Notes: generated from the letters alone by a model not told the origin. 32,000 bases of DNA from Nitrososphaera viennensis EN76 (GCF_000698785.1 NZ_CP007536.1:1080001-1112000), one strand, 5' to 3'; counted from the first letter of the stretch, positions 13,778 through 28,139 are shown. Numbers and translations are program-made.

Positions 13778-13827
13778 GAGAGAAGGGGCCTACACGACCA
13801 CGCGCGTGCCTTGCCAGAGGGCGCGCA

Positions 13828-13848: not shown

Positions 13849-14117
13849 GTGATCCAGTCTTTTACTGGCAGCGCCATATGGCAGTATATCAGGAGGATTG
13901 TCCTGACTTCTTTCTTCCTTGACTCTTGTACAGACAATACAACAAACAAGATCTACGGCTGCTGCGATGGCCAGCATCCTAACCACATCTCGAATATCAA
14001 AGGAAGCTGGACCTCTTTCAACGCTTTAATGCAGTCCCTATCCTACTGCAACACTACTCCTGTTGTTATTATTATCATACAGCCATTGCACATCATCTTT
14101 TAGAGGCATTCTCATTC

Positions 14118-14309
14118 CTAGTCATCATCATGATGGTGATCATGGTGGTGGTAATGATGATGGTGGTGGTGTTCATGCATCCCGTGTCCAAAAGCTCCAT
14201 CCATCATTCTCCCAAGACTTGAATCTTCTATCGGCTTCGCAGGCGAGGTGTAAAGTACGCTTCCATTGCCGGCGTCAACGATTACCTTGTGAAGAGTTCC
14301 GTCGTTCAT
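14118..14309 (-). CDS. Histidine-rich mini-protein with a PepSY-like fragment
   Basis: 63 aa. HKVIVDAGNGSVLY resembles the C-terminal strand pair of PepSY domains. The tail GHGMHEHHHHHHYHHHDHHHDDD has 15 His in its 23 residues. It is divergent from the Met-rich membrane protein gene. No signal peptide, so it may be a remnant. Confidence 0.45.
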   Translation of the reverse strand: MNDGTLHKVIVDAGNGSVLYTSPAKPIEDSSLGRMMDGAFGHGMHEHHHHHHYHHHDHHHDDD

Positions 14310-14427
14310 GTTCGGCTATAACCGGAGGCAATCATTGCAAAACCGATCTCACTGCACCACACTGTACACTCGCCGGCTATATTCTGCTCCCACCAATAAT
14401 CTTGTGCAGGAGGAATGATGATAATAA

Positions 14428-14862
14428 ATGGAAAACGTCTCAAAAACTGGCGGAGGAATAGCTCCTTCAGCGATATTGGCAGTCATAGGAGGAGCATTCA
14501 TGCTCGCAGGAGGAATATTCACTCTTTCAATGCTTAGTCTATGGAACCAGCAGATGGGGATGACGATGTATGGATTGGGCGGTTCAATGATGATGGGCGG
14601 AAGCAGTGGATGGGGCATGATGACGCCAGGCGGTACAGGACTCATGTGGTGGGCTGTCGGAGTCATGTCTGCGATATCTGTAGGTGCAGGTGCAGTGTCT
14701 ATAGCAGGAGGATTAGCCATTCATAGAAAGCCAGAAAGTGCGGGCATCTGGGGCATTGGAATCCTGATTGCGTCTATTGTAGGTCTTGTCAGCATGAGCG
14801 GCTTCTTCGTAGGCCCGATACTGGGAATAATCGGAGGAATACTGGCTATGGCCAAAAGGTAG
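14428..14862 (+). CDS. Met/Gly-rich integral membrane protein (candidate Cu(I)-binding)
   Basis: 144 aa with 3-4 predicted TM helices. The loop MGMTMYGLGGSMMMGGSSGWGMMTPGGTGLM has 9 Met in 31 residues. It lies immediately upstream of, and co-directional with, copA. Confidence 0.7.
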   Translation: MENVSKTGGGIAPSAILAVIGGAFMLAGGIFTLSMLSLWNQQMGMTMYGLGGSMMMGGSSGWGMMTPGGTGLMWWAVGVMSAISVGAGAVSIAGGLAIHRKPESAGIWGIGILIASIVGLVSMSGFFVGPILGIIGGILAMAKR

Positions 14863-14938
14863 CGCGGTCTCACTTGCCTTTCTTTGTTTTGAACAATTCT
14901 GTACCATACTATGATAACGCAATGCAATCAGGCAGCTT

Positions 14939-14952
14939 TTTACAATTGTAAA
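14939..14952. promoter_or_regulatory. Palindromic operator-like site in the copA promoter
   Basis: TTTACAATTGTAAA is a perfect 14-bp palindrome about 10 bp upstream of TATA-like cctatatac (14961-14969). The copA ATG is at 14995. The same 12-bp core recurs at 17446..17461. Confidence 0.55.
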
Positions 14953-14994
14953 GTTCTGCTCCTATATACGAGAAAAACCAAAAGAAAGACAGAC

Positions 14995-17181
14995 ATGGCA
15001 AAGGATCCAGTATGCGGAATGTTTGTGGAAGAAAAGCCCGGCGCCATACGCCATACGGTAGATGGCAGGGAGTATTTCTTTTGCAGCACGCAGTGCCTGA
15101 ATGAATTCACTGCGCCAGAAAAAGAGCTAAAAAAGTTAAAGACGATCACAGGAGTCAGCATCGCCCTCACCATACCGATAACGGTACTGACCTACCTGAT
15201 GATATTGCCAAAAGAGATAAACAGCTACGTCCTTCTTGCGCTGGCAATACCTGTCCAGTTCTGGGCCGGTTGGCGGTTCTACAAGGGAACGCGGGACGCC
15301 ATCAAGGCCAGAGCGTCAAACATGGACACGCTGATCGCTGTGGGAACCACGGCTGCTTTTCTGTACAGCACCCTCGTGACTGTAATGCCGGGCCTGTTCC
15401 CGTTTGAAGGCGTGTACTTTGAGACGGCCGCCATAATCATCACCCTGATACTCATAGGCAGGCTGCTTGAGACCAGGACGAAAGAAAAGGCGTCAAACGC
15501 AGTCAGGAAGCTTCTCGACCTCCAGCCCAGGATGGCACGCGTGCTCAGAGACGGCGGGAAGAGAGAAGAGGAAGTGCCGGTGGAGCAGGTGCAGGAAGGC
15601 GACCTGTTCCTGGTCAGGCCGGGCGAAAGGATACCTACCGACGGAACGGTGACAGAAGGTTCCTCCTCTGTTGACGAGTCGGCAGTCACGGGCGAGTCGA
15701 TACCGGTCGACAAGTCTGCAGGCGCACAAGTCATTGGTGCTACGATAAACAAGAGCGGCCTGCTAAAGGCAAGGGCAACCAAAGTCGGCCAGGACACGGT
15801 CCTGTCGCAGATCATAGCGCTTGTTCAGGAGGCAAGGACGGGCAAGGCGCCGATGCAGAGGATGGCCGACCAGATCGCAAAATACTTTGTCCCAGCAGTC
15901 ATCGCAGTGGCAGTCGCGTCGGCGCTGGCATGGTATTTCATAGGCGGGATAGGGCTGACGTTCTCGCTGCTTGCCTTTGTGTCAGTCATAATCATAGCCT
16001 GCCCGTGCGCGCTTGGGATCGCAACGCCGGCCGCGTTGATGATGGGAACGGGCAAGGGGGCAGAGAACGGCATACTCTTCAAGGGCGGAGAGTACCTGGA
16101 GATAGCAAGAAAAGTCAGGACAGTAGTGTTTGACAAGACAGGCACCCTGACAAAGGGCCAGCCCGAGGTCACCGACGTCATGGCGTTGTCTGAAACAATG
16201 GGCGGGCAGCAAGAGTTGCTGAGGCTTGCCGCAATAGCAGAGTCAGGCTCGGAACACACGCTGGGCCAGTCCGTGGTCAGAAAGGCAAAGGAGCAGGGCC
16301 TTGTCGTCGCAAGCCCGGAATCGTTTGAAGTGGTGTCGGGACACGGGCTGAAGGCGGGATATGCGGGCCATGCCATAATTATTGGAAACAGAAAGATGAT
16401 GGCAGACAACGGAGTGGCTGTCCCAGACAAAGTCAGCGCGACGATGAGCAGGCTTGAGACGGAAGGCAAGACCGCAACTCTTGTTTCAGTCGACGGCAGG
16501 CTTGCAGGCATTGTGGCGATGGCAGATACCGTAAAAGAACATGCGCGCGAGGCAATCGACTCGCTAAAGGAGATGGGCATTCAAGTCATCATGCTCACAG
16601 GCGACAACGAAAGGACGGCAAAGGCCATAGCGTCCAGCCTTGGCATCGACAGGGTTATTGCGCAGGTGCTTCCCCAGGAGAAGGAGCAAGTGATTGCAAG
16701 ACTAAAGTCAGAAGGCAAGGGTGCAGTAGCGATGGTAGGCGACGGCATCAATGACGCGCCGGCCCTTGCCCGTGCCGACCTCGGCATTGCGATAGGCTCC
16801 GGGACTGACGTGGCAAAGGAGACGGGCGGAATCATACTGATAAAGAACGACTTGCGCGACGTCGTGGCCGCGCTTGAGCTTGGAAGGAAAACAGTGTCAA
16901 AGATAAAGCAGAACCTGTTCTGGGCTTTTGCGTACAACACGGGCCTGATACCCATCGCGGCAGGGGCGCTCGTGCCAGCATTTGGAGCGCAGGTGTACGA
17001 ATGGCTCCCGCTTCTTGCGGGAGGGGCGATGGCAATGAGCTCGGTTTCCGTCGTGGCCAACTCGCTGCTGCTTGGCAGGTACAGGCCGAGGTTTGCGGCA
17101 GCAGGCAGGCCGGAAAAAGAACAGATGCGTACAGAAAAAGAGCTGAAGCAGCCCTACTACCACTATACAGAAGCTACATAG
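14995..17181 (+). CDS. copA: Copper-translocating P1B-type ATPase with N-terminal TRASH/YHS metal-binding domain
   Basis: Start chosen at MAKDPVCGMFV (ATG 14995, TATA about 27 nt upstream) rather than the track start at 14911. The TRASH pattern is CGM...FCSTQC. Motifs CPC (IIIACPCALG), DKTGTLT, TGDN and GDGINDAP are present. Confidence 0.9.
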   Translation: MAKDPVCGMFVEEKPGAIRHTVDGREYFFCSTQCLNEFTAPEKELKKLKTITGVSIALTIPITVLTYLMILPKEINSYVLLALAIPVQFWAGWRFYKGTRDAIKARASNMDTLIAVGTTAAFLYSTLVTVMPGLFPFEGVYFETAAIIITLILIGRLLETRTKEKASNAVRKLLDLQPRMARVLRDGGKREEEVPVEQVQEGDLFLVRPGERIPTDGTVTEGSSSVDESAVTGESIPVDKSAGAQVIGATINKSGLLKARATKVGQDTVLSQIIALVQEARTGKAPMQRMADQIAKYFVPAVIAVAVASALAWYFIGGIGLTFSLLAFVSVIIIACPCALGIATPAALMMGTGKGAENGILFKGGEYLEIARKVRTVVFDKTGTLTKGQPEVTDVMALSETMGGQQELLRLAAIAESGSEHTLGQSVVRKAKEQGLVVASPESFEVVSGHGLKAGYAGHAIIIGNRKMMADNGVAVPDKVSATMSRLETEGKTATLVSVDGRLAGIVAMADTVKEHAREAIDSLKEMGIQVIMLTGDNERTAKAIASSLGIDRVIAQVLPQEKEQVIARLKSEGKGAVAMVGDGINDAPALARADLGIAIGSGTDVAKETGGIILIKNDLRDVVAALELGRKTVSKIKQNLFWAFAYNTGLIPIAAGALVPAFGAQVYEWLPLLAGGAMAMSSVSVVANSLLLGRYRPRFAAAGRPEKEQMRTEKELKQPYYHYTEAT

Positions 17182-17407
17182 TAGCTGCCCTTCTGACGAA
17201 CTGGTAGCCCGAACGCTCCAGCTTCTCTTTTATTTCCTCTTTTGTGATCAACGAAGAATCATATTCCACTATCACAGAGTCGGTCATGAAATCAATGTCT
17301 ATCTTTTTTATCGCCTGCTCGCCCTTTAGCTGCTTTTCTACAATGGGCTTGCACGTGGTGCAGTACATGCCGACTACTTTGAAGAGCGCCTTTTGAACTG
17401 CTGCCAT
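17174..17407 (-). CDS. copZ: HMA-domain copper chaperone
   Basis: 77 aa with GMYCTTC (the GMxCxxC motif) and a length consistent with a ferredoxin-like beta-alpha-beta-beta-alpha-beta fold. Convergent with copA, with 8 nt of 3' overlap. Confidence 0.85.
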   Translation of the reverse strand: MAAVQKALFKVVGMYCTTCKPIVEKQLKGEQAIKKIDIDFMTDSVIVEYDSSLITKEEIKEKLERSGYQFVRRAATM

Positions 17408-17445
17408 GTACTATAGATAGCCCATGCTCCAATAATAGGTTGCAG

Positions 17446-17461
17446 CCTTACAATTGTAAGG
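17446..17461. promoter_or_regulatory. Palindromic operator-like site in the divergent copZ / TRASH-gene promoter
   Basis: CCTTACAATTGTAAGG is a perfect 16-bp palindrome. AT boxes flank it on both sides: aataatagg (17431-17439) for copZ and tttatc (17469-17474) for the TRASH ORF. It shares the core TTACAATTGTAA with 14939..14952. Confidence 0.55.
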
Positions 17462-17498
17462 TGCTGTCTTTATCTACGATGTCCTGCTTACTAATGGC

Positions 17499-17642
17499 AT
17501 GTTCAAAGACCCCGTGTGCAAAATGATGGTTGATGAAAGGACCGCCGAGCACATATCAGAGGCAGGCGGCAAAAAAGTCTACCTGTGCTCTGCAGCATGC
17601 AAGTCGCAGTTTGACGCCAACCCAAAGAAATTTGGATATTAA
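17499..17642 (+). CDS. Stand-alone TRASH/YHS-domain metal-binding mini-protein
   Basis: Below the ORF-track size cut-off; hand translation gives MFKDPVCKMMVDERTAEHISEAGGKKVYLCSAACKSQFDANPKKFGY* (47 aa). The pattern DPVC.M......YLCS..C is the same as the CopA N-terminus (DPVCGMFV...YFFCSTQC). Confidence 0.7.
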   Translation: MFKDPVCKMMVDERTAEHISEAGGKKVYLCSAACKSQFDANPKKFGY

Positions 17643-17703
17643 ATGGACGGCGAATCAGCAATGTTCTTGCGCCATTCTGGACATAACCGTTAAGTAATCA
17701 TCG

Positions 17704-18210
17704 ATGCAATTTCTTGACAGCATGGAATCGCCCCCTCATCAATGGTTCGATGACGTGGGGCTTTGCGTCGTCTCTGCGTTTCTCTTTATTCCAATAATAA
17801 TGTCGCCATCATTATCTGTTTATGCCCAGAGTCCTTCTTATCCAGTCGAGATCGAGAATGTAAGGTTAGTGGATCCCGGCGGGCAACCTTTGGACGATTG
17901 CCAACCAGGCGGGGAGCTAGTCATGATCGCTGTCACATTGAAGAACCTTTCAGATTCAGGCCAGCCCGCAGCCATCATCGTTGAACTCAGAGACAATAGT
18001 AGCGACATCACGCAATTCGTTCAGTGGCAAACAACATCCATCGGTCCAAAGGCCACTCCGCAAGTGGCCATAAGTTTCAATCCTGCTTCTTTGTCATCAT
18101 CATCGTCGTCATCGTCGGCCGTTCAATATGATGCCAACGTTCTCGTATGGGACAAGGTGTTGACGCCTGTCCCTTTAAGCAGCCCATTAAAAGTCCCGGT
18201 TAGCTGCTAA
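17704..18210 (+). CDS. Secreted protein carrying the recurrent beta-domain
   Basis: 168 aa. An in-frame GTG at 17755 would give a cleaner signal peptide (MGLCVVSAFLFIPIIMSPSLSVYAQS). Its domain GGELVMIAVTLKNLSDSGQPAAIIVELRDNS...YDANVLVWDK is paralogous to 13400..13774 and 28240..28586. There is a poly-Ser run. Confidence 0.6.
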   Translation: MQFLDSMESPPHQWFDDVGLCVVSAFLFIPIIMSPSLSVYAQSPSYPVEIENVRLVDPGGQPLDDCQPGGELVMIAVTLKNLSDSGQPAAIIVELRDNSSDITQFVQWQTTSIGPKATPQVAISFNPASLSSSSSSSSAVQYDANVLVWDKVLTPVPLSSPLKVPVSC

Positions 18211-18255
18211 GTAGCAGTAGTAGCATGCAAGAAGGAAAAAGGAGAGATTATTTTT

Positions 18256-19530
18256 TTATCTTCTTCTCCAGTTTCTTCTTTTGCTTCCGCCACCAAAGTT
18301 GCGGCGGTTCCGGCCGCTGCGCCCGTGCTGCTGCGGCTGATGCGGGTGGCGGCCGCGCTGCTGTTGCAGCGCAGGGACTTCGATCCCCATCGCCTCATTC
18401 AATCGGCTTATTGGAAGTTTCGTTTGCCTCAGTATCCTTTCAAACTCGCCAAACCGGTCGGGAGACACGAGCGAGACGGCAGTGCCTTCTGCTCCTGCCC
18501 TTGCGGTCCGGCCTATTCTGTGAAAATAGGTTTCCGGCTCGTTTGGCACGTCATAGTTTATCACGTGGCCCACCGCCGGGACGTCGATTCCCCTTGCGGC
18601 AATGTCTGTTGCCACAAGCACGCTGTCTGCGCCCCTGCGGAACCTGTTCATGACGTGGTCGCGCTCTTTCTGAGACAGGTCGCCGTGTATTGCAGACGCC
18701 CGAAAACCTCCCGCCTTCAGGTTTGCCGCCAGCTTGTCCGCCCTGCGCTTTGTCGCGGCAAACACTATCACCTGCTCCTTGTGCGGGCGGATGAGGCTTG
18801 TCAGGTGGCTGAATTTCTGCTGCTCGCTTACGAGGAGGTACGACTGCTCGATGTTGTCAAGGCCGACTTCCTTCGTGTTCAGCCTTATTTCGCGTATCTG
18901 CCCTTCCCGCATGTGGCCCTTGGCAAGCCTTAGGATCTCCGGCGACATTGTCGCGGAAAACAGCAACGTTTGTCTGTCTTTGCTCCCGCTCTTGCCCAGC
19001 CTTGACAGTATGAACTCGATGTCGTCGATAAAGCCCATGTCAAGCATCCTGTCGGCCTCATCAAGGACTACAAACTTGACTCCGTCCAACTTTATCGAGC
19101 CCCGCTTTATGTGGTCTATGAGCCTGCCGGGCGTGGCGACCACTATGTGGGCACCCCTCTTTAGCAGGCCGGTCTGAACCCCAAAGCTCTGCCCGCCGTA
19201 AACTGAAACCGTCCATACCTGCGCGTATTTTGAAAATTTTATCAGCTCGCCTGTAACCTGAACCGCAAGCTCCCTTGTCGGCACGAGTATCAGCGCCTGC
19301 ACCTGCCTATTGCCATTTTTCACTTTTGACAAGAGCGGCAACCCAAATGCCGCCGTCTTGCCGGTGCCCGTGTGCGCCTGCCCTATGACGTCTTTTCCCT
19401 GCAGGATGAGTGGTATTGCCGCCTCCTGTATCGGGAAGGGTTTCTCAAACCCGTTTTCTGCAAGCGCTTTCTGGACCTTCTCGTCAAGCCCGAGTTCCTC
19501 AAACGTGGTTGCGGATTCCTTTACTGCCAT
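18256..19530 (-). CDS. DEAD-box ATP-dependent RNA helicase
   Basis: 424 aa. Q-motif FEKPFPIQ, then AHTGTGKTAAF, PTRELA, DEAD, SAT and HRIGRTARAG. Basic Arg/Gly-rich C-terminal tail. Confidence 0.9.
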   Translation of the reverse strand: MAVKESATTFEELGLDEKVQKALAENGFEKPFPIQEAAIPLILQGKDVIGQAHTGTGKTAAFGLPLLSKVKNGNRQVQALILVPTRELAVQVTGELIKFSKYAQVWTVSVYGGQSFGVQTGLLKRGAHIVVATPGRLIDHIKRGSIKLDGVKFVVLDEADRMLDMGFIDDIEFILSRLGKSGSKDRQTLLFSATMSPEILRLAKGHMREGQIREIRLNTKEVGLDNIEQSYLLVSEQQKFSHLTSLIRPHKEQVIVFAATKRRADKLAANLKAGGFRASAIHGDLSQKERDHVMNRFRRGADSVLVATDIAARGIDVPAVGHVINYDVPNEPETYFHRIGRTARAGAEGTAVSLVSPDRFGEFERILRQTKLPISRLNEAMGIEVPALQQQRGRHPHQPQQHGRSGRNRRNFGGGSKRRNWRRR

Positions 19531-19672
19531 CTTTCTTTTTCACTTTTATTTTCTCGTCATACAAAAGCCACGGAAGATGATGCGTGCGGTACTTGTTGAA
19601 CAAACCTGCCGGAGTCTCTTTGTACCTGACGCAGTAGGCCAGTGCATGATATAAACTGTGGTAACGTGTGGC

Positions 19673-19918
19673 CTATATCGCGTACGTCAGTTTTGCTATT
19701 ATTTTTTCCACGATCACGTCTACCTCCAAAGCCCTGTCCTTGCCAAGCGGGATTTCCACCCCGGCCTCGGCGGCCTTTCTGGCCACGTCCGCGTCGTCCC
19801 GGTCAAGCATGCAAAACGGATCGTCGAGGCCGCTGCCGCCGGCAGGGGCGCGCTCCGTCCAGATTATTTTTTTAGAGCCATCGTCCTTGTAGCCTGCCCG
19901 GTAAATACAGTCCGACAA
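19673..19918 (-). CDS. Hypothetical 81-aa protein, possibly translationally coupled to the upstream radical SAM gene
   Basis: An in-frame TTG at 19918 lies 2 nt after the TAA (19921-19923) of the rSAM gene. Translation: (M)SDCIYRAGYKDDGSKKIIWTERAPAGGSGLDDPFCMLDRDDADVARKAAEAGVEIPLGKDRALEVDVIVEKIIAKLTYAI. The composition looks protein-like. The track lists it only as the tail of a GTG-started ORF (19673..20002) that overlaps the rSAM gene. No family recognised. Confidence 0.3.
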   Translation of the reverse strand: MSDCIYRAGYKDDGSKKIIWTERAPAGGSGLDDPFCMLDRDDADVARKAAEAGVEIPLGKDRALEVDVIVEKIIAKLTYAI

Positions 19919-19920
19919 CC

Positions 19921-20955
19921 TTATTTCGCTCCCCAGCACCGGTCGTCGGCGGCAAGGTAGTTGCCGGTATAGGCGTACGCGGCGGCCCTGCAGCCACCGC
20001 ACTTGTACTTAAAGTCGCACGAGCCGCAATGTCCTTCGACGTCCCTGTCCTTCAGGTGCTTTATGACATCAGAGTTGTCCCAGATTTCCTTGAAGCTGCC
20101 ATCGCGTATGTTCCCCACCTTTAGCGGCAGAAATACGCAGGGGATGATGTCGCCGTTGGCCCGTATGGAGCCAAGCCCGATTCCTGCCTGGCATCCGATA
20201 AAGCCGGGCATCTCCATGTAGCATTCGTCTACCAGCACCAGCTTGTCGGTGTGCGACGTAAACATCATTTTCGTGTACTGGTTCTTTTTTGCGACCCACC
20301 TTTCATAGACGTACTTCCATTCCTCTGTCGACAGGTCCAGCTCCTTCGGGCCCCTTCCCACCGGGATGTACTGCGACAGGTTGAACGTGGAGACTCCCAT
20401 GGCGGCCACCCTGTCCACCACCTCGTCCATCTGCCTGTAGTTCAGCTTGTTTGCGGTAAAGCAGACCTTGGTCGTTATCTTGTTCTCGACCAGCATCTCT
20501 ATGGCGTCCATCGCCCGGCCGAATATGCCGTCCAGGCCGCGGAACACGTCGTGCGTGTACGGGAGCCCGTCCACGCTTATCTGGACGCGGGTTATCCCGG
20601 CCTTTTTCATCTCTTTTACGCTCTGCTCCGTCACCGTGCTCCCGGACGAGCCGAGGCCCACGTTCATGTTTTTCCTGCGCGCGTACCGGATGATGTCGTA
20701 TATGTCGTCGCGCAGGAGTGCCTCGCCCCCGGACAGCGACAGGTCCAGCACGCCGGCGTCGGCAAGGTCGTCCAGCAGCTTTATGCCCTCTTCGGGGCTC
20801 AGCTCGTCAGGGAGCCTGGACTTGGCGTTAGAGGAGCAGTGCTGGCAGTGCACGTTGCACAGGTTCGTGACGTGCCACACCATGTGGTAAGGGTATTTCG
20901 GGACTTTTGACAGGTACTGTTCTTTTTCTTCAATCATCTTTAGCTTTGTCTTCAT
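19921..20955 (-). CDS. Radical SAM / SPASM-domain enzyme B (peptide-maturase-like or NirJ/Ahb-like)
   Basis: 344 aa. Radical SAM cluster CNVHCQHC. GGEALLRDD. C-terminal auxiliary-cluster Cys pattern CQAGIGLGSIRANGDIIPC...CGSCDFKYKCGGCRAAAYA. ATGA overlap with the upstream PqqD-like gene. Confidence 0.85.
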   Translation of the reverse strand: MKTKLKMIEEKEQYLSKVPKYPYHMVWHVTNLCNVHCQHCSSNAKSRLPDELSPEEGIKLLDDLADAGVLDLSLSGGEALLRDDIYDIIRYARRKNMNVGLGSSGSTVTEQSVKEMKKAGITRVQISVDGLPYTHDVFRGLDGIFGRAMDAIEMLVENKITTKVCFTANKLNYRQMDEVVDRVAAMGVSTFNLSQYIPVGRGPKELDLSTEEWKYVYERWVAKKNQYTKMMFTSHTDKLVLVDECYMEMPGFIGCQAGIGLGSIRANGDIIPCVFLPLKVGNIRDGSFKEIWDNSDVIKHLKDRDVEGHCGSCDFKYKCGGCRAAAYAYTGNYLAADDRCWGAK

Positions 20956-21317
20956 TGGCTTGCCACTACCTCCTCCTTCCCTTCCTTCTTCTTCTCCTCC
21001 TGTTTCTTCTCGCCGCCTTCCCTTTGTTCGATGATGATCCCCCTGTCCACGAGTTTCTGGAGGAAATCAAGGAATACCTGCCTGCCTCCCTCTGCCGAGA
21101 ATTCGCCGTACATTTCCGATACCGCAAAGTGCACGTCCCCGACGGAGTTGCTGCCGTCAAGCATGTCCAGTACCAGCTTGCTCAGGGGAGAGATCTTGGT
21201 TATCATGTCGGTGCTCGGGTTGTACACGGTAAACGACTGGTCGTTTTCGCGCCTGCACACGACTTTTGGGTTCATGACAAAAACGGCAGTGTCATCGCTA
21301 CTTGTCATTTTTTTCAC
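20952..21317 (-). CDS. PqqD-family protein (putative RiPP recognition element)
   Basis: 121 aa. The layout is PqqD-like: a beta-start (VVCRRENDQSFTVYNPSTDMITKISPLSKLVLDMLDGSNSVGDV), then helices (VSEMYGEFSAEGGRQVFLDFLQKLVDRGII), then a Glu/Lys-rich tail. It overlaps rSAM A by 20 nt (or 11 nt from the ATG at 21308) and rSAM B by 4 nt. Confidence 0.65.
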   Translation of the reverse strand: MKKMTSSDDTAVFVMNPKVVCRRENDQSFTVYNPSTDMITKISPLSKLVLDMLDGSNSVGDVHFAVSEMYGEFSAEGGRQVFLDFLQKLVDRGIIIEQREGGEKKQEEKKKEGKEEVVASQ

Positions 21318-22398
21318 TCAGCCTCCTTAGCGGCTCTATCTGGATCAGCGGCTCATGCGACTTTGTTTCTGCTGCCGCTGCGGCAGGGATGTATTCCATC
21401 GGCTTGTACCAGCATTCAGGGTCGCCCTCAAACAGGTCGCCGTAATTTGCGTACGCCACAGCCCTGCACCCGCCGCAGACTTCTTTTTTGTCGCAGCAGC
21501 CGCAGTTGTTTTTCAGGTTACTCCTGTCGCGCAGCCCCAGCATGAGGGGAGCGTTTTCCCACAGGTAGCGGAATCCCCTTTCCCGCACGTTGCCGCAAGG
21601 GATGGGAAGCAGCGGGCACGAATAGAGGGTGCCGTCGGCGGCTATCCTGCAGGTGGTCCTGCCGGCGCCGCAGCCCGTCTTGGCGGCGCTCCCGATTTCA
21701 GGTATCAGGATTGCCGCCCTGCAGTCGTGCCATGTTATCCTTATCCTGTCCCGGTATTTCTTTTCCAGCTGCACCCATGCAGCCATGGTCTCCTTTAGCT
21801 CGTCGGCGGTCAGCGCAATCGTGGTGCCAAACCTCCCGGTGGGGACGTACTCCGACACGTTTACGGTGTCCGCGTGGAGGTCAAGCGCCATCCGCACTAT
21901 CTCTTCCCGCTCCTTGTAGTTGTGGCTCATGGGCGTGAACCCTATCAGGACCTTTATTCCCTCGTCCTTGAGGCACTTCACTGCGTCGCAGGCTTTTTGG
22001 AACAGCTGCGGCACCTGGCGGATGTAATCGTGCAGGGCAGGCTGCGTGCTGTCGATGCTGACGGTGACTGCCTGTATGCCCACCTCCTTGAGGCGCCTTG
22101 CGGTCTTTTGGTTGACAAGGATGCCGTTCGTGGCGACGTTTGTCAGCATCTTTCTGTCGTGCGCGTGCTGCATAAAGTCAAAGCAGTCCTTGCGCAACAA
22201 CGCCTCGCCGCCGCCAAACCCGAGAAGCAGGGTCCCGGCGTCTGCCAGCTCGTCGATCAGCTTGTGGCCTTCCTCGGTCGTCAGCTCGTTTGGAAGGGGC
22301 TTTCCGGCGTGCGAATAGCAGTGGATGCAAGAGGCGTTGCACGCCAGCGTCACGTCGTAGATGACATACAGCGGCTTTGGGGTATACGACATTTGCAT
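21298..22398 (-). CDS. Radical SAM / SPASM-domain enzyme A (paralogue of enzyme B)
   Basis: 366 aa. Radical SAM cluster CNASCIHC. GGGEALLRKD. C-terminal Cys pattern CGAGRTTCRIAADGTLYSC...CGCCDKKEVCGGCRAVAYA. LPNELTTEEGHKLIDELADAGTLLLGFGGGEALLRKD aligns closely with LPDELSPEEGIKLLDDLADAGVLDLSLSGGEALLRDD of enzyme B. Confidence 0.85.
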   Translation of the reverse strand: MQMSYTPKPLYVIYDVTLACNASCIHCYSHAGKPLPNELTTEEGHKLIDELADAGTLLLGFGGGEALLRKDCFDFMQHAHDRKMLTNVATNGILVNQKTARRLKEVGIQAVTVSIDSTQPALHDYIRQVPQLFQKACDAVKCLKDEGIKVLIGFTPMSHNYKEREEIVRMALDLHADTVNVSEYVPTGRFGTTIALTADELKETMAAWVQLEKKYRDRIRITWHDCRAAILIPEIGSAAKTGCGAGRTTCRIAADGTLYSCPLLPIPCGNVRERGFRYLWENAPLMLGLRDRSNLKNNCGCCDKKEVCGGCRAVAYANYGDLFEGDPECWYKPMEYIPAAAAAETKSHEPLIQIEPLRRLSEKNDK

Positions 22399-22406
22399 TT
22401 TGTTTT

Positions 22407-22544
22407 CTATGCCTCCGAAAACGTCGTCACCGAATCCAGCTTTTCAGAATCAAACGTTGCTGCCGCTGCCACTAGTCTGCGTCTGAGTGCAAAGCGAGGT
22501 TTTGAAAAGTAGCCGTTGCTTTCTTTGCGTCTATCCTCGGGCAT
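22407..22544 (-). CDS. Candidate 45-aa precursor peptide of the radical SAM operon
   Basis: Below the track cut-off. Codon-by-codon hand translation gives MPEDRRKESNGYFSKPRFALRRRLVAAAATFDSEKLDSVTTFSEA*. The TAG stop ends 8 nt before the ATG of rSAM A. The ORF opens only 8 codons upstream of its ATG, and an AT-rich TATA-like region lies 5-35 nt upstream. Coding status is unproven. Confidence 0.3.
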   Translation of the reverse strand: MPEDRRKESNGYFSKPRFALRRRLVAAAATFDSEKLDSVTTFSEA

Positions 22545-22689
22545 ACTACATAATATACCGGGTATTATTTAACATTATATCTATTTTTGGGTTTTCTGTC
22601 AAATTCAAGTGATTTAAGGGGATAAATGCCACATTAGATCTAATTTACGGAATTCTTAAATAATTCGACATCATACATCAAGCATACAT

Positions 22690-23175
22690 ATGAGTTCGCG
22701 GAATGAGGAGGCACGAAACCTGAGCGTCGTGAAACAGTACCTGAAGGCATTTGGCAGCGGAAACCCGGACGAAATGGCAAACCACCTGGCAGAGAATGCA
22801 GTATTTGAGATTCCAGGACCCAAAAATTCTGCATACTCTAAACACATCGTAGGCAAAAGGAGCATCCACGAATTCTACGCCAAAAGGCAGGAAACGCGCG
22901 GGAAATTCATAAAGAGCACGGCAGTCAAGCCGCGCTTTATCACGGGCAAGAACGCAGTCATCGCAGAGTGGACAGTCAGCGGGTACACCAGAGACGGCGA
23001 GAAATTCGAGTCGAGGGGAACAAACCACTTTACCCTGAACCGCGAGGGAAAGATAAAGAAGGTCAGCATCTTCATAAACGCGCCGCTATCGTCGGACGTC
23101 AGATCCCTGGCGGAGAGAAGGCTGATGGTGTCGGACCAGGGCCAGCTGGCGCTGATGGCATGGTCGGTCGTCTAA
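22690..23175 (+). CDS. NTF2-fold (SnoaL / ketosteroid-isomerase-like) protein
   Basis: 161 aa. N-terminal VVKQYLKAFGSGNPDEMANHLAENAVFEIPG...GKRSIHEFY...AEWTVSGYTRDGEKFESRGTNHFTLNREGKIKKVSIF is the typical SnoaL-like pattern. Confidence 0.6.
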   Translation: MSSRNEEARNLSVVKQYLKAFGSGNPDEMANHLAENAVFEIPGPKNSAYSKHIVGKRSIHEFYAKRQETRGKFIKSTAVKPRFITGKNAVIAEWTVSGYTRDGEKFESRGTNHFTLNREGKIKKVSIFINAPLSSDVRSLAERRLMVSDQGQLALMAWSVV

Positions 23176-23392
23176 GATAAACAAACACACTCTCTCCCTA
23201 CAGCCTGACGCCGAACCAAGGGCCCGTACACCCTTCTTTTCGACCGGCTCCAAAATACGCGCCGCGGCGGGATGGAAAGTTTTTGAATTGAACTGTTATT
23301 GTTACAGGGTTGAAAGTGATGGGCTTGTCCGACCAACCAGCCGAACAGAACCCAGCATGATTTAAATTGGATTTGCCAGGTCTTTTTTCGTA

Positions 23393-23710
23393 TTGCCTAT
23401 CGATCCCAACTTTCGGGAAAACAGGGTCGCAACGACATTTGAGAACCTGAAGGTATGGAAAGACAAGGCGAGCAACCTCGGGATCTATGGCACAGGCGTG
23501 GCAGTCGATTTTGACCTTTGCGTCGGCGACGGGGCATGCATCGACGTGTGCCCGGTGAACGTGTTTGACTGGCACGGCTCTGGCGCCGATAGAAAAGCGC
23601 TCCCAGCCCGCGAGCGCGACTGCATATACTGCTACGGCTGCGAGGCAGTATGCCCCAAGTTTGCAATCAGGGTTACCCCGCTGCAGGAGAAAAAGAGGCA
23701 AGAAAAATGA
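23393..23710 (+). CDS. Zinc-containing 2x[Fe-S] ferredoxin (Sulfolobus type)
   Basis: 105 aa, TTG start. N-terminal PIDPNFRENR...GIYGTGVAVDFDLCVGDGACIDVCPVNVFDW...CIYCYGCEAVCPKFAI closely parallels Sulfolobus ferredoxin (GIDPNYRTNR...[25 protein letters not shown]...CIFCMACVNVCPVAAI). TATA-like gatttaaatt lies about 27 nt upstream. Confidence 0.85.
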   Translation: MPIDPNFRENRVATTFENLKVWKDKASNLGIYGTGVAVDFDLCVGDGACIDVCPVNVFDWHGSGADRKALPARERDCIYCYGCEAVCPKFAIRVTPLQEKKRQEK

Positions 23711-24708
23711 TCAAGATAGACGAGAGCCGCATTTTCCAGATAATCGAGGAGCGCAAGCCCCGCTCAGTAGCATTGAACGGCGCCGAGGCGCTCATCCCGC
23801 GCCTGCAGGACGTGGCCGACCACGTGCACGAAAAATTCGGCATTGAGGCATACGTAATTGGCGACCCGTGCTGGGGCTCGTGCGATCTTAACACGCATGC
23901 GGCAGACATGCTCGGGGCAGACCTGCTGTTCAACGTGGGCCACACGGTGGCGATGGAGACCTTTGGCGAAAAGGTGGTGATGATAAACGCGTACGACGAC
24001 GTGAGCTTTGATTCTGTCGCAAGAAAGTTCGCAAAGGACATGCAGGGAAGGTACAAGGCGATATCTCTTGTCACGGACAGCCAGCACTTGGAGGAGGTGG
24101 AAAAAGCGCAGAAAATCTTTGAAGAGTTTGGATACAAGGTCATAATAGGTCGAGGAAAGGGCCAGCTGCGCGACGCGCAGGTATTTGGCTGCGAGTTCTA
24201 CCCCGCATGGAACGTGCAAAAGCAGGTCGACTGCTATGTATTCCTTGGCCAGAGCCAGTTCCACTCTGCAAGCGTGGCCATGTCGACAGAGAAGCCGACG
24301 TTCATGCTGGACCCGTATTTCGAGGAATACACTCAGATAAACGAGTTTGCTCAGGGGCTGCAAAAGCGCGCCATCCTTTCAATATACAAGGCTGCTGACG
24401 CCGAGCGCATCGGGATCGTCATCGGCCTGAAGGAGGGCCAGTTTGCGCACGTGCGCGCGCTGGAGCTGAAAAAGGAATTTGAAAAGCTGGGCAAGAAGGT
24501 GCAGCTGATAGCGCTTACGGAAATCACGGGCGACAGGATGCAGATATTCAAGGGAATCGACGCCTTTGTGCAGGTCGCCTGCCCCAGGATCGCGACGGAC
24601 AACCACTTTGCCAAGCCGATGCTTTCCGTGCCGCAGGCGCTTGCGCTCATCAAGCTGCTAAAGAAAGAGCCCATAGAAGACTTTCTCAGGATACAGCACT
24701 GGCTCTAG
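23707..24708 (+). CDS. dph2: 2-(3-amino-3-carboxypropyl)histidine synthase (diphthamide synthesis, non-canonical radical SAM enzyme)
   Basis: The start is the internal ATG at 23707 (MIKIDESRIF), overlapping the ferredoxin stop (ATGA). Blocks from my recalled alignment to P. horikoshii Dph2: GDPCWGSCD, NVGHT, IIGRGKGQL..AQVFGC, VQVACPRIA. Confidence 0.85.
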   Translation: MIKIDESRIFQIIEERKPRSVALNGAEALIPRLQDVADHVHEKFGIEAYVIGDPCWGSCDLNTHAADMLGADLLFNVGHTVAMETFGEKVVMINAYDDVSFDSVARKFAKDMQGRYKAISLVTDSQHLEEVEKAQKIFEEFGYKVIIGRGKGQLRDAQVFGCEFYPAWNVQKQVDCYVFLGQSQFHSASVAMSTEKPTFMLDPYFEEYTQINEFAQGLQKRAILSIYKAADAERIGIVIGLKEGQFAHVRALELKKEFEKLGKKVQLIALTEITGDRMQIFKGIDAFVQVACPRIATDNHFAKPMLSVPQALALIKLLKKEPIEDFLRIQHWL

Positions 24709-25096
24709 TTTAGTAACAAGCTTCTGGGTATTGCCTCTTTTTGATACCAGTTGCCTCGTGCAAACAATTAAATAGAGCGTCAAAAATTTCGTGATTTCCT
24801 TGAAAATCTTGTAGAATTCCACATTTGTCGAAATACCACTGAAATACTTTCGCAAAAATATGCGTGACATCATGCGAAATATTGAACAGATAACTATGAT
24901 TTCTCCATATTTTATTTAGAACATTTACAATAATGAGCAGAAGCAGATTATACGAATTTTGACATTAACCAGCTTTTAATGATAGAATATTTGTACAAAT
25001 CTTAAATAGATATTGGGTGTAATTCATAGCAAGGGAAAAAGAAGACCAGGGCGGGCAACCGTCATGTGCCACTATTTTGCCCCCCAGTGATAAAAA

Positions 25097-25339
25097 ATGA
25101 CTTGCAAGGGTATATGCATCCGTCACAAGGCTCAAAAGCCAGTCGGCTCGGGCAGGTACGCCAGCGGGCAGAAGAGGTGCCAGATCTGCGAGATATTCAT
25201 CAAGTGGGACGGCCTCTGGTGCCCGTGCTGCGGGTACAGGCTCCGCACAAAGCCAAGGAACCTGAAGTACAAGGCAAAGCTGCGCGCCAGAGCAAAAAAG
25301 ATGGCGGTGGCCAAGCCGATCGCGGTTCGCTCAAGATAA
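25097..25339 (+). CDS. Small basic zinc-finger protein
   Basis: 80 aa. CKGIC...x19...CQIC...x10...CPCC, followed by a Lys/Arg-rich tail. Possibly binds nucleic acid. No family named. Confidence 0.5.
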   Translation: MTCKGICIRHKAQKPVGSGRYASGQKRCQICEIFIKWDGLWCPCCGYRLRTKPRNLKYKAKLRARAKKMAVAKPIAVRSR

Positions 25340-25357
25340 AAGCGAGCAAGACTGGCG

Positions 25358-25735
25358 ATGGAGAGCGGAACTGGAGCGCCGAGCAGGGAGGAGGTCCGCT
25401 CGGACAGCGGAAGAAGTTTCCTGCTTGAAGCCAATTTTTACGGCAACGGTTGTTTTCTAGCCATTTCGGAAGGAGGCAACAGGAGGATAGGCGCCATATC
25501 GGTAGCGATAAGCTCGCAGAACAACACGACTGCGGCAAAGGTCATACCGAGCAAGAGCGATCCCCTTTTCGTCAACACTATTGCGGAGAAGGTGGCGTCC
25601 ATGATAAACGGCATCTGCATAGTCTCGTTCTACGCAAAGGGCCAGTTAAAGCTTGAAGACATGAAAGCAATTATGGGAGGGGTTATGCATATCGTGGAGG
25701 CAGAAGGTAACAATAGCAATGGCAACAACAAGTAA
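25358..25735 (+). CDS. Hypothetical protein overlapping the start of the UbiD-family gene (possible accessory subunit or chaperone)
   Basis: 125 aa: ...FLLEANFYGNGCFLAISEGGNRRIGAISVAISSQNNTTAAKVIPSKSDPLFVNTIAEKVASMINGICIVSFYAKGQL... It overlaps the downstream UbiD homologue by 17 nt. Function is not recognised with confidence. Confidence 0.5.
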   Translation: MESGTGAPSREEVRSDSGRSFLLEANFYGNGCFLAISEGGNRRIGAISVAISSQNNTTAAKVIPSKSDPLFVNTIAEKVASMINGICIVSFYAKGQLKLEDMKAIMGGVMHIVEAEGNNSNGNNK

Positions 25736-27107
25736 CAACGGCGATCTCCGCAGCTACCTCTCGCTGCTTGAAAAAGAGGGCGAGCTTGTCCGCGTCAAAA
25801 AGGCAGTCAGCGCAAAATTCGAGCTTGCGGCCGTGGTTTCCAAGCTTGACTCCAGGCAGGCGGTGCTGTTTGAAAAGGTAAAGGAGAGCAGCAGCAAGAT
25901 CTCTGTCGCAAGCAACGTCTGCGGCACGCCGGGGAGGTTCTACATGGCCATCAGCTCAAAGAGCGTGCCAAAGGGCGTCGCCGAGGCAAAAAAGGCGATA
26001 CACGCCCGCGTTGGCGAGGCGCTTGCGGGCATGTCCGTACCTTCAAAAACGCAGGAGACAGCGCCGTTATTTGAGCAAAACTCCTCAAGGGACCTGAACG
26101 ACCTGCCGATAGTGACGCATTTTGAAAAGGACGCCGGCGCGTTTGTCACGGCGTCCGTTGTTTTTGCAAAGGACGGCGAGCGGGGAAACCAGAACTCTTC
26201 CACCCACCGCCTGCTGCGCATGGATGAAAAACACATGGCGATAAGGATGGTGGAGGGCAGGCACCTGCACAAGTGCTACACGTACGCAAAGGACCACGGC
26301 GAGGACCTGAAAGTGGCCATCGCAGTCGGCGTGCACCCGGCAGTCAGCATCGCTGCGGCGTACCAGGCTGCGTACGGCGTCGACGAGATGATGATCGCAA
26401 ACGCGCTCCTCGAAGGCAGGCTAAAGCTAGCCAAGGCCAGTTATTCTCAATTGTACGTGCCGAATCATTCAGAGATAATCATCGAGGGCAGGATACTCAA
26501 GGACAGGGTGCAGGAGGAGTGGATGGTCGAGATGCTCCGCACGTACGACTTTAGGCGCAAGCAGCCGGTGTTTGAGCTTGAAAGGATAAGGTTCCGGGAC
26601 AACGCAATCTACCACGACATACTTCCAGGCTACGCTGAGCACCGCCTGCTGATGGGCCTGCCGGTGGAAGCCAAGATGTACGACTATGTCAAGAGCGTCG
26701 TTCCCACCACGCAGGCGGTGCACCTCACCAACGGCGGGAGCAACTGGCTCTCTGCTGTTATCCAGATAAAAAAGCGCCTTGAAGGCGAGCCCAAGAACGC
26801 CATCATGGCCGCGTTTGCCGCCCACCCGTCGTTAAAGATGGCTACCGTGGTGGACGACGACATCGACCCGGCGGACGCAGTCGCAGTGGAATACGCCGTT
26901 GCGACGAGGTGCCAGGCGGACAGGGGCTTTGTCATCATTCCAAACGCAAAGGGCTCCAGCCTCGACCCTTCAAGCGACCAGCAGAACCTGCTCACCACCA
27001 AGGTCGGCATCGACGCGACTGCGACCATCCTGAAACCGAAGGAGAGGTTCGAGATTGCGAGGATTCCCGGCGAGGACGAGATCGACGTAAGCAATTACAT
27101 CACCTAA
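25719..27107 (+). CDS. UbiD-family (prFMN-dependent) decarboxylase; likely anhydromevalonate phosphate decarboxylase
   Basis: 462 aa. UbiD-like blocks DLRSYLSLLEKEGELVRVKK, FEKDAGAFVTASVVFAKD..GNQNSSTHRL, and VAIAVGVHP. Archaea lack ubiquinone, and the archaeal mevalonate pathway uses a UbiD homologue together with AcnX, which is present at 2237..3828. The specific substrate is inference. Confidence 0.75.
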   Translation: MATTSNNGDLRSYLSLLEKEGELVRVKKAVSAKFELAAVVSKLDSRQAVLFEKVKESSSKISVASNVCGTPGRFYMAISSKSVPKGVAEAKKAIHARVGEALAGMSVPSKTQETAPLFEQNSSRDLNDLPIVTHFEKDAGAFVTASVVFAKDGERGNQNSSTHRLLRMDEKHMAIRMVEGRHLHKCYTYAKDHGEDLKVAIAVGVHPAVSIAAAYQAAYGVDEMMIANALLEGRLKLAKASYSQLYVPNHSEIIIEGRILKDRVQEEWMVEMLRTYDFRRKQPVFELERIRFRDNAIYHDILPGYAEHRLLMGLPVEAKMYDYVKSVVPTTQAVHLTNGGSNWLSAVIQIKKRLEGEPKNAIMAAFAAHPSLKMATVVDDDIDPADAVAVEYAVATRCQADRGFVIIPNAKGSSLDPSSDQQNLLTTKVGIDATATILKPKERFEIARIPGEDEIDVSNYIT

Positions 27108-27144
27108 TAAGATTAAATAGCCTCATACACTAACACTGTGCGCC

Positions 27145-27474
27145 ATGAAAGCTAACAATTATGCCATGAAAGACTGGCACCTTGAACACGTTGAAAAAGT
27201 AATTGTTCGCTATGTCAAGGGCGTGTCCCCTGACGCTTCCTCTTTTGAAAAACGCAACTACAAGAAATACAGCACGGTCTCCAGCTGCGCCAAGCAGATA
27301 GAGTACGACATCAAGCACGGCGTGACGCACGAGGAGGTCATGGCAGTCGTGCGCAAGGTCCGCCACGACAAGTCGTTCAAGGACCTGCAAAAGAGCCCCG
27401 AGTCGCTCCAGCGCCTTGACGAGCTGGAACGGCAGATCTGCGCCCCGAAAAAAGTGGCGGCGTCGTTCTTCTGA
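27145..27474 (+). CDS. Hypothetical protein
   Basis: 109-aa charged, helical-looking ORF with no overlap problems. No motif recognised. Confidence 0.45.
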   Translation: MKANNYAMKDWHLEHVEKVIVRYVKGVSPDASSFEKRNYKKYSTVSSCAKQIEYDIKHGVTHEEVMAVVRKVRHDKSFKDLQKSPESLQRLDELERQICAPKKVAASFF

Positions 27475-27526
27475 ACCTGAAATAAATAGTTATATTGGCG
27501 TTGTCGGGCAAGACTGGTGCCTGCAT

Positions 27527-28087
27527 ATGTCAGAGTACCGGTTCACCGACGGCAACCTTCTTGTCCTGTACGCAGTCCACAGGGGCAAGTCCCAAGACGG
27601 CGGGCTACCTGATTATGTACAAGAGCGCGTCAAGGTCAGCCTAGAGACGTACAACATGATAATGAAGTCGAGGCCGGACAGGCACAAGACGATGGTCATG
27701 ATAGTCGGCGAGCCGGGCCCGTCAGAGAAGGTAAAAGAGATTCTGGTAAAGGGCGGGGTAAAACCGGAAATCATCGCCATCGATTCAGAATCCAAGAACA
27801 TCGGGCAAACAATCGACTATATCCACAGCATGATAAGCAAAAAGCCAAACCCGCCTTTCATCTATTTCATAGCGTCTGTGTGGCTGCATGACACGTACAA
27901 CACGACGGTCATTTCAAAGATGAAGGGTATCAAGACGCAGTTCTACGGCGCGCTTGACCACAGGCCGGTGCACGAGGTGGAGCAGGAAAAGACGTATGAT
28001 GCCCCGAAAAAGGGCGGCGAGTACTACAAGCGCAAGCTGACAAACAAGGCAGTAGACGTTGTTTTGAATATAATTTTCCCCGACTAG
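27527..28087 (+). CDS. DUF218 / YdcF-like protein
   Basis: Start moved to the ATG at 27527 (MSEYRFTDGNLLVLYAV), with TATA-like aaataaatagttatatt about 30 nt upstream. MVMIVGEPGPSEKVKEILVKGGVKPEIIAIDSESKNIGQTIDYI resembles the DUF218 core (G..........L...Gv....I..e..S.nT.en). Confidence 0.5.
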   Translation: MSEYRFTDGNLLVLYAVHRGKSQDGGLPDYVQERVKVSLETYNMIMKSRPDRHKTMVMIVGEPGPSEKVKEILVKGGVKPEIIAIDSESKNIGQTIDYIHSMISKKPNPPFIYFIASVWLHDTYNTTVISKMKGIKTQFYGALDHRPVHEVEQEKTYDAPKKGGEYYKRKLTNKAVDVVLNIIFPD

Positions 28088-28139
28088 CTACAATTGGCAG
28101 CAAAAGACTGTTTCCACATCGCTTAAATTCTGCAAATGT

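Follow-up and report, generated by a model that had tools for sequence, protein, structure and literature searches.

Which molecule is processed by the two radical S-adenosylmethionine (rSAM) enzymes that are encoded, together with a PqqD-like protein, in a compact operon of the ammonia-oxidising archaeon Nitrososphaera viennensis EN76? The operon lies in a window of 32,000 nucleotides (nt) (NZ_CP007536.1:1080001-1112000), which is the whole stretch of DNA that was analysed. The original prediction had interpreted the operon as a maturation system for a peptide that is synthesized ribosomally and modified post-translationally (RiPP), with no assignable product. The interpretation as an rSAM/SPASM and PqqD maturation cassette was supported, because the cassette is conserved together with a partner protein that ends in a common motif, and because the enzymes lie outside the curated families. 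In contrast, the lack of an assignable product could not be upheld, because a conserved candidate precursor is encoded just beyond the operon. The substrate is probably (we estimate a probability of roughly 0.68) the C-terminal tail of this adjacent NTF2/SnoaL-like protein, and the locus would represent a RiPP-type or protein-tail maturation system.

The SnoaL-like protein of 161 amino acids (aa) has a folded core (about residues 1–131) that is joined by a variable linker to a C-terminal tail, which is conserved. It is matched by SnoaL_2 (PF12680) with 53.4 bits, compared with a gathering score of 27. An AlphaFold2 (AF2) model based on an alignment of six sequences had a mean predicted local distance difference test (pLDDT) value of 71, with 73–90 in the core and 35–42 for residues 132–161. 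It superseded an earlier model that was based on three sequences and had a pLDDT of 57.7. A Foldseek search with the AF2 model retrieved SalBIII, SnoaL2, KSI, and NTF2-like folds with E values of about 1e-8. The core is predicted to have an NTF2/SnoaL fold, and the model suggests that the tail is flexible. Within the aligned partner proteins, the strongest conservation was found at the extreme C-terminus, which reads …LMVSDQGQLALMAWSVV in N. viennensis and …LSVEDIGRLALAAWPVV in Holophagaceae. Comparison of 49 unique precursors yielded the motif L(-13) x V x D [ILV] G(-7) [RE] L [AS] L x A W(0) x V [VI]-COOH, in which G(-7) and W(0) are invariant and L-13, V-11, D-9, L-5, A-1, V+2, and V/I+3 are nearly so. 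In all 49 precursors the motif is placed at the extreme C-terminus and is directly followed by the stop codon; rare variants end with AWMVA or AWPVVA. The mean pairwise identity of 41 unique SnoaL-type precursors was 69% for the tail, 39% for the NTF2 domain, and 25% for the linker. The NHLP/Nif11 leader models did not match the protein, and no report on an NTF2/SnoaL fold as a RiPP leader was found in a literature search whose coverage excluded most subscription journals.

The conservation of the cassette was analyzed in both directions, from the enzyme to the precursor and from the precursor to the enzyme. A profile of rSAM B was compared with one genome per species and identified 31 loci. 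At 28 of these, rSAM A, rSAM B, and an open reading frame (ORF) ending with the motif occurred together; the three exceptions were partial matches or were located at the end of a contig. Conversely, a search of metagenomes with the tail motif identified 28 loci, and rSAM genes were present at 20 of them, the remaining eight being contigs of 3.1 kb or less. The genome loci belong to Paenibacillaceae, Bacteroidota, Gallionella, Hyphomicrobiaceae, Afifella, Rhodopseudomonas, Pseudovibrio, Rubrivivax, Reyranella, Opitutaceae, and Lysobacteraceae, and the cassette as a whole ranges over Paenibacillaceae, Bacteroidota, Alpha-, Beta-, and Gammaproteobacteria, Acidobacteriota, Verrucomicrobiota, and N. 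viennensis with its metagenomic relatives. In the neighbourhoods of rSAM B homologues, a SnoaL_2/NTF2-like protein of 160–190 aa accompanies rSAM A, PqqD, and rSAM B, and its gene adjoins the cassette at essentially all related loci. PqqD and a tail-bearing precursor were found to be conserved alongside both enzymes at more than 45 loci. The locus has the gene content of a generic RiPP pathway: a candidate precursor, with a putative recognition segment and core, is encoded beside the modifying enzymes and a predicted RiPP recognition element (RRE).

Homologue searches by indexed words were of low sensitivity and yielded two matches for the PqqD-like and three for the SnoaL-like protein; relatives of both were collected via gene neighbourhoods and pattern scans. 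An exhaustive hidden Markov model (HMM) search that was built from archaeal-type precursor sequences only retrieved seven proteins at E <= 1e-3. This shows that the archaeal-type precursor subfamily is, as judged from its profile, very small, and the count gives no size for the whole family because the bacterial members are too diverged for the archaeal-type profile. None of the June-2026 NCBIfam models claims any component of the cassette. No paper on the cassette family or on the tail motif was found, with most subscription journals outside the coverage, and PMC10288494 and PMC12912966 do not mention the family.

The composition of the cassette was not uniform. In Paenibacillaceae, the same tail (…DLGELSLIAWRVI) is carried by 47-aa peptides without an NTF2 domain, the genes of which are preceded by a strong canonical Shine-Dalgarno motif. 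In these clusters, a LuxR/PAS regulator is followed in order by rSAM A, PqqD, the peptide, a pair of M16 proteases, rSAM B, and an MFS transporter. A sister architecture (L010:2372-9046 and L016:557-9362) encodes peptides of 49–71 aa that end with …SWAVI or …LWNVI, and comprises three rSAM/SPASM genes, a PqqD-like protein of 89–90 aa, an MFS transporter, a split carbamoyltransferase, and TldD/PmbA genes upstream. Tandem SnoaL-type precursor genes occur at L050:7414-8540 and L056:3611-4975. One of the L056 copies ends with the variant …GQLSKAAWAVV, and the L050 copies have an extra Ala at the end (…AWLIVA and …AWPVVA). A further subtype ending with …AMAWMVA was found at L034, L036-L043, and L048 (Bauldia, Pseudovibrio, Rubrivivax, Reyranella, Opitutaceae, and Lysobacteraceae). 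At two of these loci, L036 and L040, a gene for a B12-binding radical SAM enzyme of about 488 aa, possibly a radical methylase that acts on the core, is situated between PqqD and rSAM B, and the same gap recurs at the other loci of the subtype. A VOC/glyoxalase gene is a recurrent neighbour of the cassette, for example in Bacteroidota, and a class I methyltransferase gene is present at L007, L015, L027, L056, and L075.

In N. viennensis, five ORFs on the minus strand are tightly coupled in the order 45-aa ORF, rSAM A, PqqD-like protein, rSAM B, and small tail ORF, and the gene of the SnoaL-like protein is located on the opposite strand (Table 1). The operon anatomy had been predicted with all its junctions, and each of them is present as described. 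The genes of rSAM A and the 121-aa PqqD-like protein overlap by 20 nt, or by 11 nt if the ATG at 21308 favoured by the gene caller is used; an ATGA overlap joins the 121-aa ORF and rSAM B; and the TTG of the 81-aa ORF follows 2 nt past the stop codon of rSAM B. For the last ORF, gene callers favour a GTG at 19939, which would lead to a protein of 88 aa.

Table 1. Features of the rSAM/SPASM cassette of N. viennensis EN76. Positions are counted from the first nucleotide of the window.
Feature	Position	Strand	Remarks
45-aa ORF	22407-22544	-	stop codon 8 nt ahead of the rSAM A ATG (22398)
rSAM/SPASM enzyme A	21298-22398	-	366 aa, CNASCIHC
PqqD-family protein, stand-alone	20952-21317	-	121 aa from GTG start; alternative of 118 aa
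rSAM/SPASM enzyme B	19921-20955	-	344 aa, CNVHCQHC
Small tail ORF	19673-19918	-	81 aa from TTG start
SnoaL_2/NTF2-like protein, candidate precursor	22690-23175	+	161 aa, divergent from the rSAM operon
Conserved tail of the SnoaL-like protein, residues 145-161	23122-23172	+	LMVSDQGQLALMAWSVV-COOH
AWSVV, putative core of the SnoaL-like protein	23158-23172	+	stop codon 23173-23175
TATA-like box TTAAATAA	22656-22663	+	26 nt upstream of the ATG of the SnoaL-like protein
TATA-like box TTAAATAA	22565-22572	-	20 nt upstream of the ATG of the 45-aa ORF

The two enzymes had been described as paralogous rSAM/SPASM proteins with the motifs CNASCIHC and CNVHCQHC, and the analysis is in full agreement with this description. 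Their sequences are 36% identical over 331 aa (E = 8e-75), and both domains are recognized with scores above the Pfam gathering scores, with 83.1 bits (Radical_SAM, PF04055) and 24.3 bits (SPASM, PF13186) for rSAM A and 83.0 bits and 39.5 bits, respectively, for rSAM B. The cysteine triads are C20/C24/C27 in rSAM A and C33/C37/C40 in rSAM B. Alignments of 44–46 orthologues revealed that both enzymes have the CxxxCxxC motif and eight further conserved auxiliary or C-terminal Cys residues, and a CGGCRAxAYA block is present at both C-termini. The complement of cysteines for binding the rSAM and SPASM cofactors is complete in the two proteins. Both enzymes belong to the radical SAM/SPASM subfamily. 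The nearest solved structures are SkfB and, next to it, PqqE, both of which are peptide-modifying enzymes. The alignment with SkfB starts only at SkfB residue 108, past its N-terminal region, and the rSAM cores begin at residues 20 (A) and 33 (B); for these reasons, neither enzyme contains a fused RRE.

The affiliation of the enzymes with curated families was judged with the June-2026 NCBIfam models and their cut-offs, and neither enzyme reached any of these cut-offs. With the AhbD and NirJ2 models (TIGR04545/TIGR04055, cut-off 500), rSAM A scored 214.9/221.5 bits and rSAM B 226.9/225.2 bits. Both enzymes scored 153–169 bits with AhbC/NirJ1 (TIGR04546/TIGR04054, cut-off 650) and 206–241 bits with TIGR04053 (cut-off 395). 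The scores of rSAM A and rSAM B, respectively, were 157.7 and 200.9 bits with the GeoRSP rSAM model (TIGR04303, cut-off 400), 148.2 and 146.7 bits with MftC (TIGR03962, cut-off 265), 130.3 and 119.1 bits with PqqE (TIGR02109, cut-off 381), 107.5 and 118.9 bits with ScmE, and 93.8 and 93.3 bits with ScmF (cut-off 400 for both). Bacterial orthologues from Holophagaceae, Paenibacillus, and Pseudovibrio were likewise below every NCBIfam cut-off, and no triceptide maturase model was among the top 25 NCBIfam matches of the enzymes.

Because the enzymes are far below the curated cut-offs, an identity as haem enzymes and membership in the GeoRSP or SynChlorMet systems were rejected. An HMM comparison with the tetrapyrrole enzymes had been proposed at the outset, and its result, 153–227 bits versus cut-offs of 500–650, speaks against AhbC, AhbD, or NirJ; furthermore, no neighbour similar to ahbA/B or to siroheme decarboxylase genes was found in the annotated flanks of the window copy and of the related loci. 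Membership in the GeoRSP systems, whose layout the original prediction had seen in the operon, was not supported: the enzymes have 158–201 bits versus 400, the PqqD-like protein does not match the GeoRSP PqqD-family models, and there is no SPASM-only partner. SynChlorMet scored low for all components (ScmE/ScmF 93–119 versus 400 bits, ScmD 27.6 versus 100 bits). Mycofactocin was dismissed because the enzymes are below the MftC cut-off and because the precursor ends with AWSVV and not with GVY, and pyrroloquinoline quinone (PQQ) because the PqqE cut-off was missed and PqqA, PqqB, and PqqC are all absent from the locus.

The designation of the 121-aa ORF as PqqD-like turned out to be correct at the level of the family, whereas the N. 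viennensis protein by itself narrowly misses the Pfam threshold (PF05402, 20.3 bits versus a gathering score of 23.4). Orthologues at the same position in the cassette have higher scores (36.1 bits at L009 and 23.6 bits at L007), and 21 of 23 orthologues match PF05402. In addition, the family profile matches the structures of TbiB1 (5v1u, a lasso-peptide RRE; E = 1e-4) and PqqD (5sxy and 3g2b). The sole NCBIfam match of the protein is ScmD. On the basis of its family, the 121-aa ORF is thus regarded as a PqqD-family protein. The PqqD family has an established function in RiPP recognition, and therefore the protein can be expected to act as an RRE. Its C-terminal extension (residues ~97–121; 20952-21030, minus strand; …EQREGGEKKQEEKKKEGKEEVVASQ) is of low complexity and rich in Lys and Glu, and it is absent from the bacterial orthologues and from L007.

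The comparison with known systems revealed similarities to several of them. Mycofactocin biosynthesis also combines a stand-alone PqqD-type RRE with an rSAM/SPASM enzyme that lacks a fused RRE. The conserved core of MftA is located strictly at the free C-terminus, and both cores contain Val (…GVY-COOH in MftA versus …AWxVV-COOH here). MftC is also among the better NCBIfam matches of the enzymes (147–167 bits). In contrast to mycofactocin, however, the system has a conserved pair of paralogous rSAMs rather than a single enzyme, a core with Trp but without Tyr, a precursor that in most cases is fused to an NTF2 domain, and no MftD, MftE, or MftF genes. PQQ biosynthesis similarly comprises PqqD and an rSAM/SPASM enzyme that acts on a peptide, and the M16 pair of the Paenibacillaceae cassettes follows the logic of PqqF/G/L, cross-linking followed by excision; the differences are the low PqqE scores, the lack of PqqB and PqqC, another core motif, and the second rSAM. 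Two SPASM-type proteins and a PqqD-like protein are also characteristic of GeoRSP and SynChlorMet (ScmD/ScmE/ScmF), the cassettes that Haft described in silico, but by score the present family is a different one, and a precursor can be assigned to it. AhbD, NirJ2, and AhbC, which act on carboxylates by oxidative decarboxylation or by removal of side chains, are the closest curated relatives in sequence and have the SPASM C-terminal block in common with rSAM A and rSAM B, whereas the genomic context found here is that of a peptide system, with PqqD, precursor, and proteases, and without ahbA/B neighbours. NHLP/Nif11 leaders and borosin fusions likewise join a protein-sized N-terminal domain with an enzyme fold to a short C-terminal core, but here the domain is NTF2/SnoaL-like. 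In triceptides (three-residue cyclophanes; for example, PMC11499958 and PMC11851443) and in darobactin-type Trp cross-links, an rSAM/SPASM maturase acts on an aromatic-x-x motif, and W-x-V has the 1-3 spacing of such cross-links. The present system differs from triceptides in its single motif at the C-terminus and its two conserved rSAMs, and the enzymes lie outside every curated family. The new element would be a precursor family and two conserved paralogous maturases within the known type of rSAM/SPASM and RRE pathway.

We hypothesize that the stand-alone PqqD-like protein would bind the alternating-hydrophobic LxVxDxG segment of the tail as a beta-strand, in the manner of an RRE, and would present the terminal A-W-x-V-V to both SPASM enzymes, each of which would perform one distinct radical step on the terminal Trp and Val residues. 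One step might, speculatively, be a cross-link between the side chains of Trp and Val(+2), as W-x-V has the spacing of a three-residue cyclophane. The other step, or an alternative to the first, might be an oxidative decarboxylation of the free C-terminal residue similar to those of MftC or AhbD. MftC and AhbD/NirJ act on carboxylates, and a decarboxylation would explain that the nearest curated relatives are the decarboxylating AhbD/NirJ2 and MftC. In N. viennensis, neither a dedicated protease nor an exporter is encoded next to the cassette, and thus the product may remain on the protein or be freed by a housekeeping protease. It is possible, albeit doubtful, that the pathway leads to a hitherto unknown Trp/Val-based, peptide-derived product from the C-terminus of an NTF2-fold protein that serves, like PQQ or mycofactocin, as a redox cofactor or signal of a new kind, or as a protein-bound cofactor that is tethered in the NTF2 pocket and works there, and that the system represents a new RiPP class whose leader is an NTF2 domain and which many bacterial phyla share with a soil ammonia-oxidising archaeon.

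Several alternatives to the tail of the SnoaL-like protein as a substrate have to be considered. The precursor could be encoded within the operon itself, by the 45-aa ORF upstream of rSAM A, which had been proposed as a candidate substrate, or by the 81-aa ORF, which lies downstream of rSAM B. Coupling of the 45-aa ORF to rSAM A is tight, and the TATA-like box 20 nt upstream of its ATG makes leaderless translation possible. One related lineage (L007/L008) has a conserved counterpart of the 81-aa ORF (71 aa, BLASTP E = 5e-12), including the common C-terminus IEKIIAxLTYxI. However, a phmmer search for the 45-aa ORF retrieved N. viennensis copies only, and the closest relatives (L007/L008, L012, L049, and L077) lack it, even though their enzymes are 65–80% identical. 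At L007/L008, L049, and L077, the SnoaL gene is co-directional and abuts rSAM A, leaving no space for the 45-aa ORF, and at L012 an unrelated 62-aa ORF is found at its position. Neither Trp nor the tail motif is found in the 45-aa ORF, and it matches no Pfam or NCBIfam model. Being confined to N. viennensis and devoid of the motif, it was rejected as a conserved precursor. L012 and all of the bacterial loci lack the 81-aa ORF, which matches no family. The W-x-V-V motif occurs in neither ORF, and the conservation of the rSAMs and PqqD extends to bacteria, in which both small ORFs are missing, so that it is very unlikely that one of them encodes the precursor. Still less credible, to a degree that we give it hardly any weight, is a role of rSAM A and rSAM B as tetrapyrrole enzymes (AhbC/AhbD/NirJ) of alternative haem or haem d1 synthesis next to an incidental PqqD gene. 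The best NCBIfam matches are indeed NirJ2, AhbD, and TIGR04053 (206–241 bits), and the C-terminal CGGCRAxAYA block is shared, but the scores are less than half of the AhbD/NirJ2 and AhbC/NirJ1 cut-offs, and the two enzymes are each other's closest paralogues, which is not the case for AhbC and AhbD. PqqD and a tail-bearing precursor have been retained with both enzymes at the more than 45 loci, the Paenibacillaceae cassettes contain M16 proteases and MFS exporters, and none of the annotated flanks has a siroheme decarboxylase-like neighbour.

Two further alternatives assign another role to the SnoaL-like protein. It could be a catalytic or binding partner, such as a cyclase, isomerase, or carrier, with the tail as a docking motif, while the substrate would be a small molecule or an unrecognised peptide. 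This would be in agreement with the confident folding predicted for the NTF2 core and its resemblance to the enzymes SnoaL, SalBIII, and KSI, with the lack of a protease or exporter in the SnoaL-type clusters, and with the recurrence of tailoring genes that resemble those for small molecules (VOC/glyoxalase and class I methyltransferase). Nevertheless, we consider it unlikely: nearly tail-only peptides of 47–71 aa hold the same position in the cassettes of Paenibacillaceae and L010/L016, the domain has evolved fast while the tail has been conserved (39% versus 69% identity), a PqqD-type RRE implies a peptide ligand, and the strict placement of the tail at the free C-terminus mirrors that of MftA. 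The tail-only peptides, the tandem precursors, and the recurrent tailoring genes make the tail more likely to be a substrate than a docking motif. Alternatively, the product could be the modified SnoaL-like protein itself, with the cross-linked or decarboxylated tail as a built-in cofactor or as a lid of the NTF2 pocket. The SPASM enzymes anSME and QhpD are known to mature proteins, many phyla have kept the NTF2 domain, and again the missing protease and exporter would fit. This possibility is rather improbable, because the tail can function without the domain, as is evident from the short peptides that occur with proteases, and nothing indicates that the tail is docked on the domain, the AF2 prediction of the tail being of low confidence.

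The modification of the SnoaL-like protein's tail is the interpretation that we favour, but some points weigh against it. Its support is comparative throughout. The precursor gene of N. viennensis is transcribed divergently from the operon and not co-directionally with it, and co-expression is deduced solely from the common 290-bp promoter region. The absence of protease and exporter from the SnoaL-type clusters is untypical of a secreted RiPP, and the intact NTF2 domain with its confidently predicted fold could be an enzyme or a binding partner besides or instead of a substrate. The PqqD-like protein of N. viennensis, taken alone, is just under the Pfam gathering score, and the cross-link and decarboxylation chemistry is a guess from the spacing of the motif and from the functions of distant relatives.

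The 290-bp intergenic region seems to have an explanation in the arrangement of the relatives. As their SnoaL gene abuts rSAM A, the precursor gene appears to have been inverted in N. viennensis, which would have generated the divergent region. The 45-aa ORF is probably a leaderless upstream ORF or a 5′-leader that was born of this inversion, and it may be translated. The sequence TTAAATAA occurs at two sites in the window, both of which are located in the 290-bp region (0.36 expected by chance). These boxes may be twin archaeal promoters that would generate near-leaderless transcripts. The minus-strand box is probably the promoter of the rSAM operon, and its spacing of 20 nt would place the transcript start at or near 22544. 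The 81-aa ORF is, judged by its conservation, a real, lineage-restricted accessory gene.

The history of the enzymes was addressed with a neighbour-joining tree, which resolves rSAM A and rSAM B as distinct orthogroups. Both halves of the tree contain the same groups of loci in a similar arrangement, and therefore the cassette travels as a unit and the duplication leading to A and B is older than its spread. N. viennensis and low-GC metagenomic relatives form a deep branch of their own in both halves; the close relatives L007, P0094, and P0095 are assigned to the archaea solely by their grouping with N. viennensis. Mobility genes adjoin some of the bacterial cassettes (L009:8725-10584 and L015:7654-13080) and encode TraG/TrwB-like proteins, a relaxase, and IS21/Mu-type transposases. 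This neighbourhood suggests horizontal mobility of the cassette.

For the orphan rSAM/PqqD operon of N. viennensis, these results provide a testable set of components, that is, a candidate substrate (residues ~145–161), its binding partner, and two enzymes. More generally, they point to a widespread family of rSAM RiPP systems in many bacterial groups that is outside the June-2026 NCBIfam models. The N. viennensis locus is a rare archaeal candidate for an rSAM RiPP and belongs to a cultivated soil ammonia oxidiser. If the assignment is confirmed, this would be the first NTF2/SnoaL-fold RiPP leader known to us. The presence of two paralogous SPASM enzymes for one five-residue C-terminal core suggests that undescribed chemistry is likely.

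Further observations concern the surroundings of the cassette. The metagenome contig L001 is 100% identical to positions 9921-25289 of the window and then diverges completely (L001:1-5666 versus 25290-32000 of the window), which reflects either a strain-level rearrangement or an assembly chimera. Its divergent part encodes a 200-aa fusion of FeS_assembly_P and PqqD (L001:1257-1859) that is absent from the window. Two large adjacent ORFs on the plus strand (10152-11777, 541 aa, and 11873-13777, 634 aa) are essentially without Pfam annotation, the 634-aa ORF alone having a weak SpaA match. Downstream of a DEAD-box helicase gene, a group of copper-handling genes was found at about 14900-17700 on both strands, which were assigned from the Pfam annotation of the identical contig and include a P-type ATPase (14911-17181, plus strand) and small HMA and YHS proteins; the group has no evident link to the rSAM cassette. 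A search of the 32-kb window for tRNA genes gave no match, and the sole match of an Rfam scan was the archaeal signal recognition particle RNA at 6094-6404 on the plus strand (RF01857, 114 bits versus a gathering score of 96.5).

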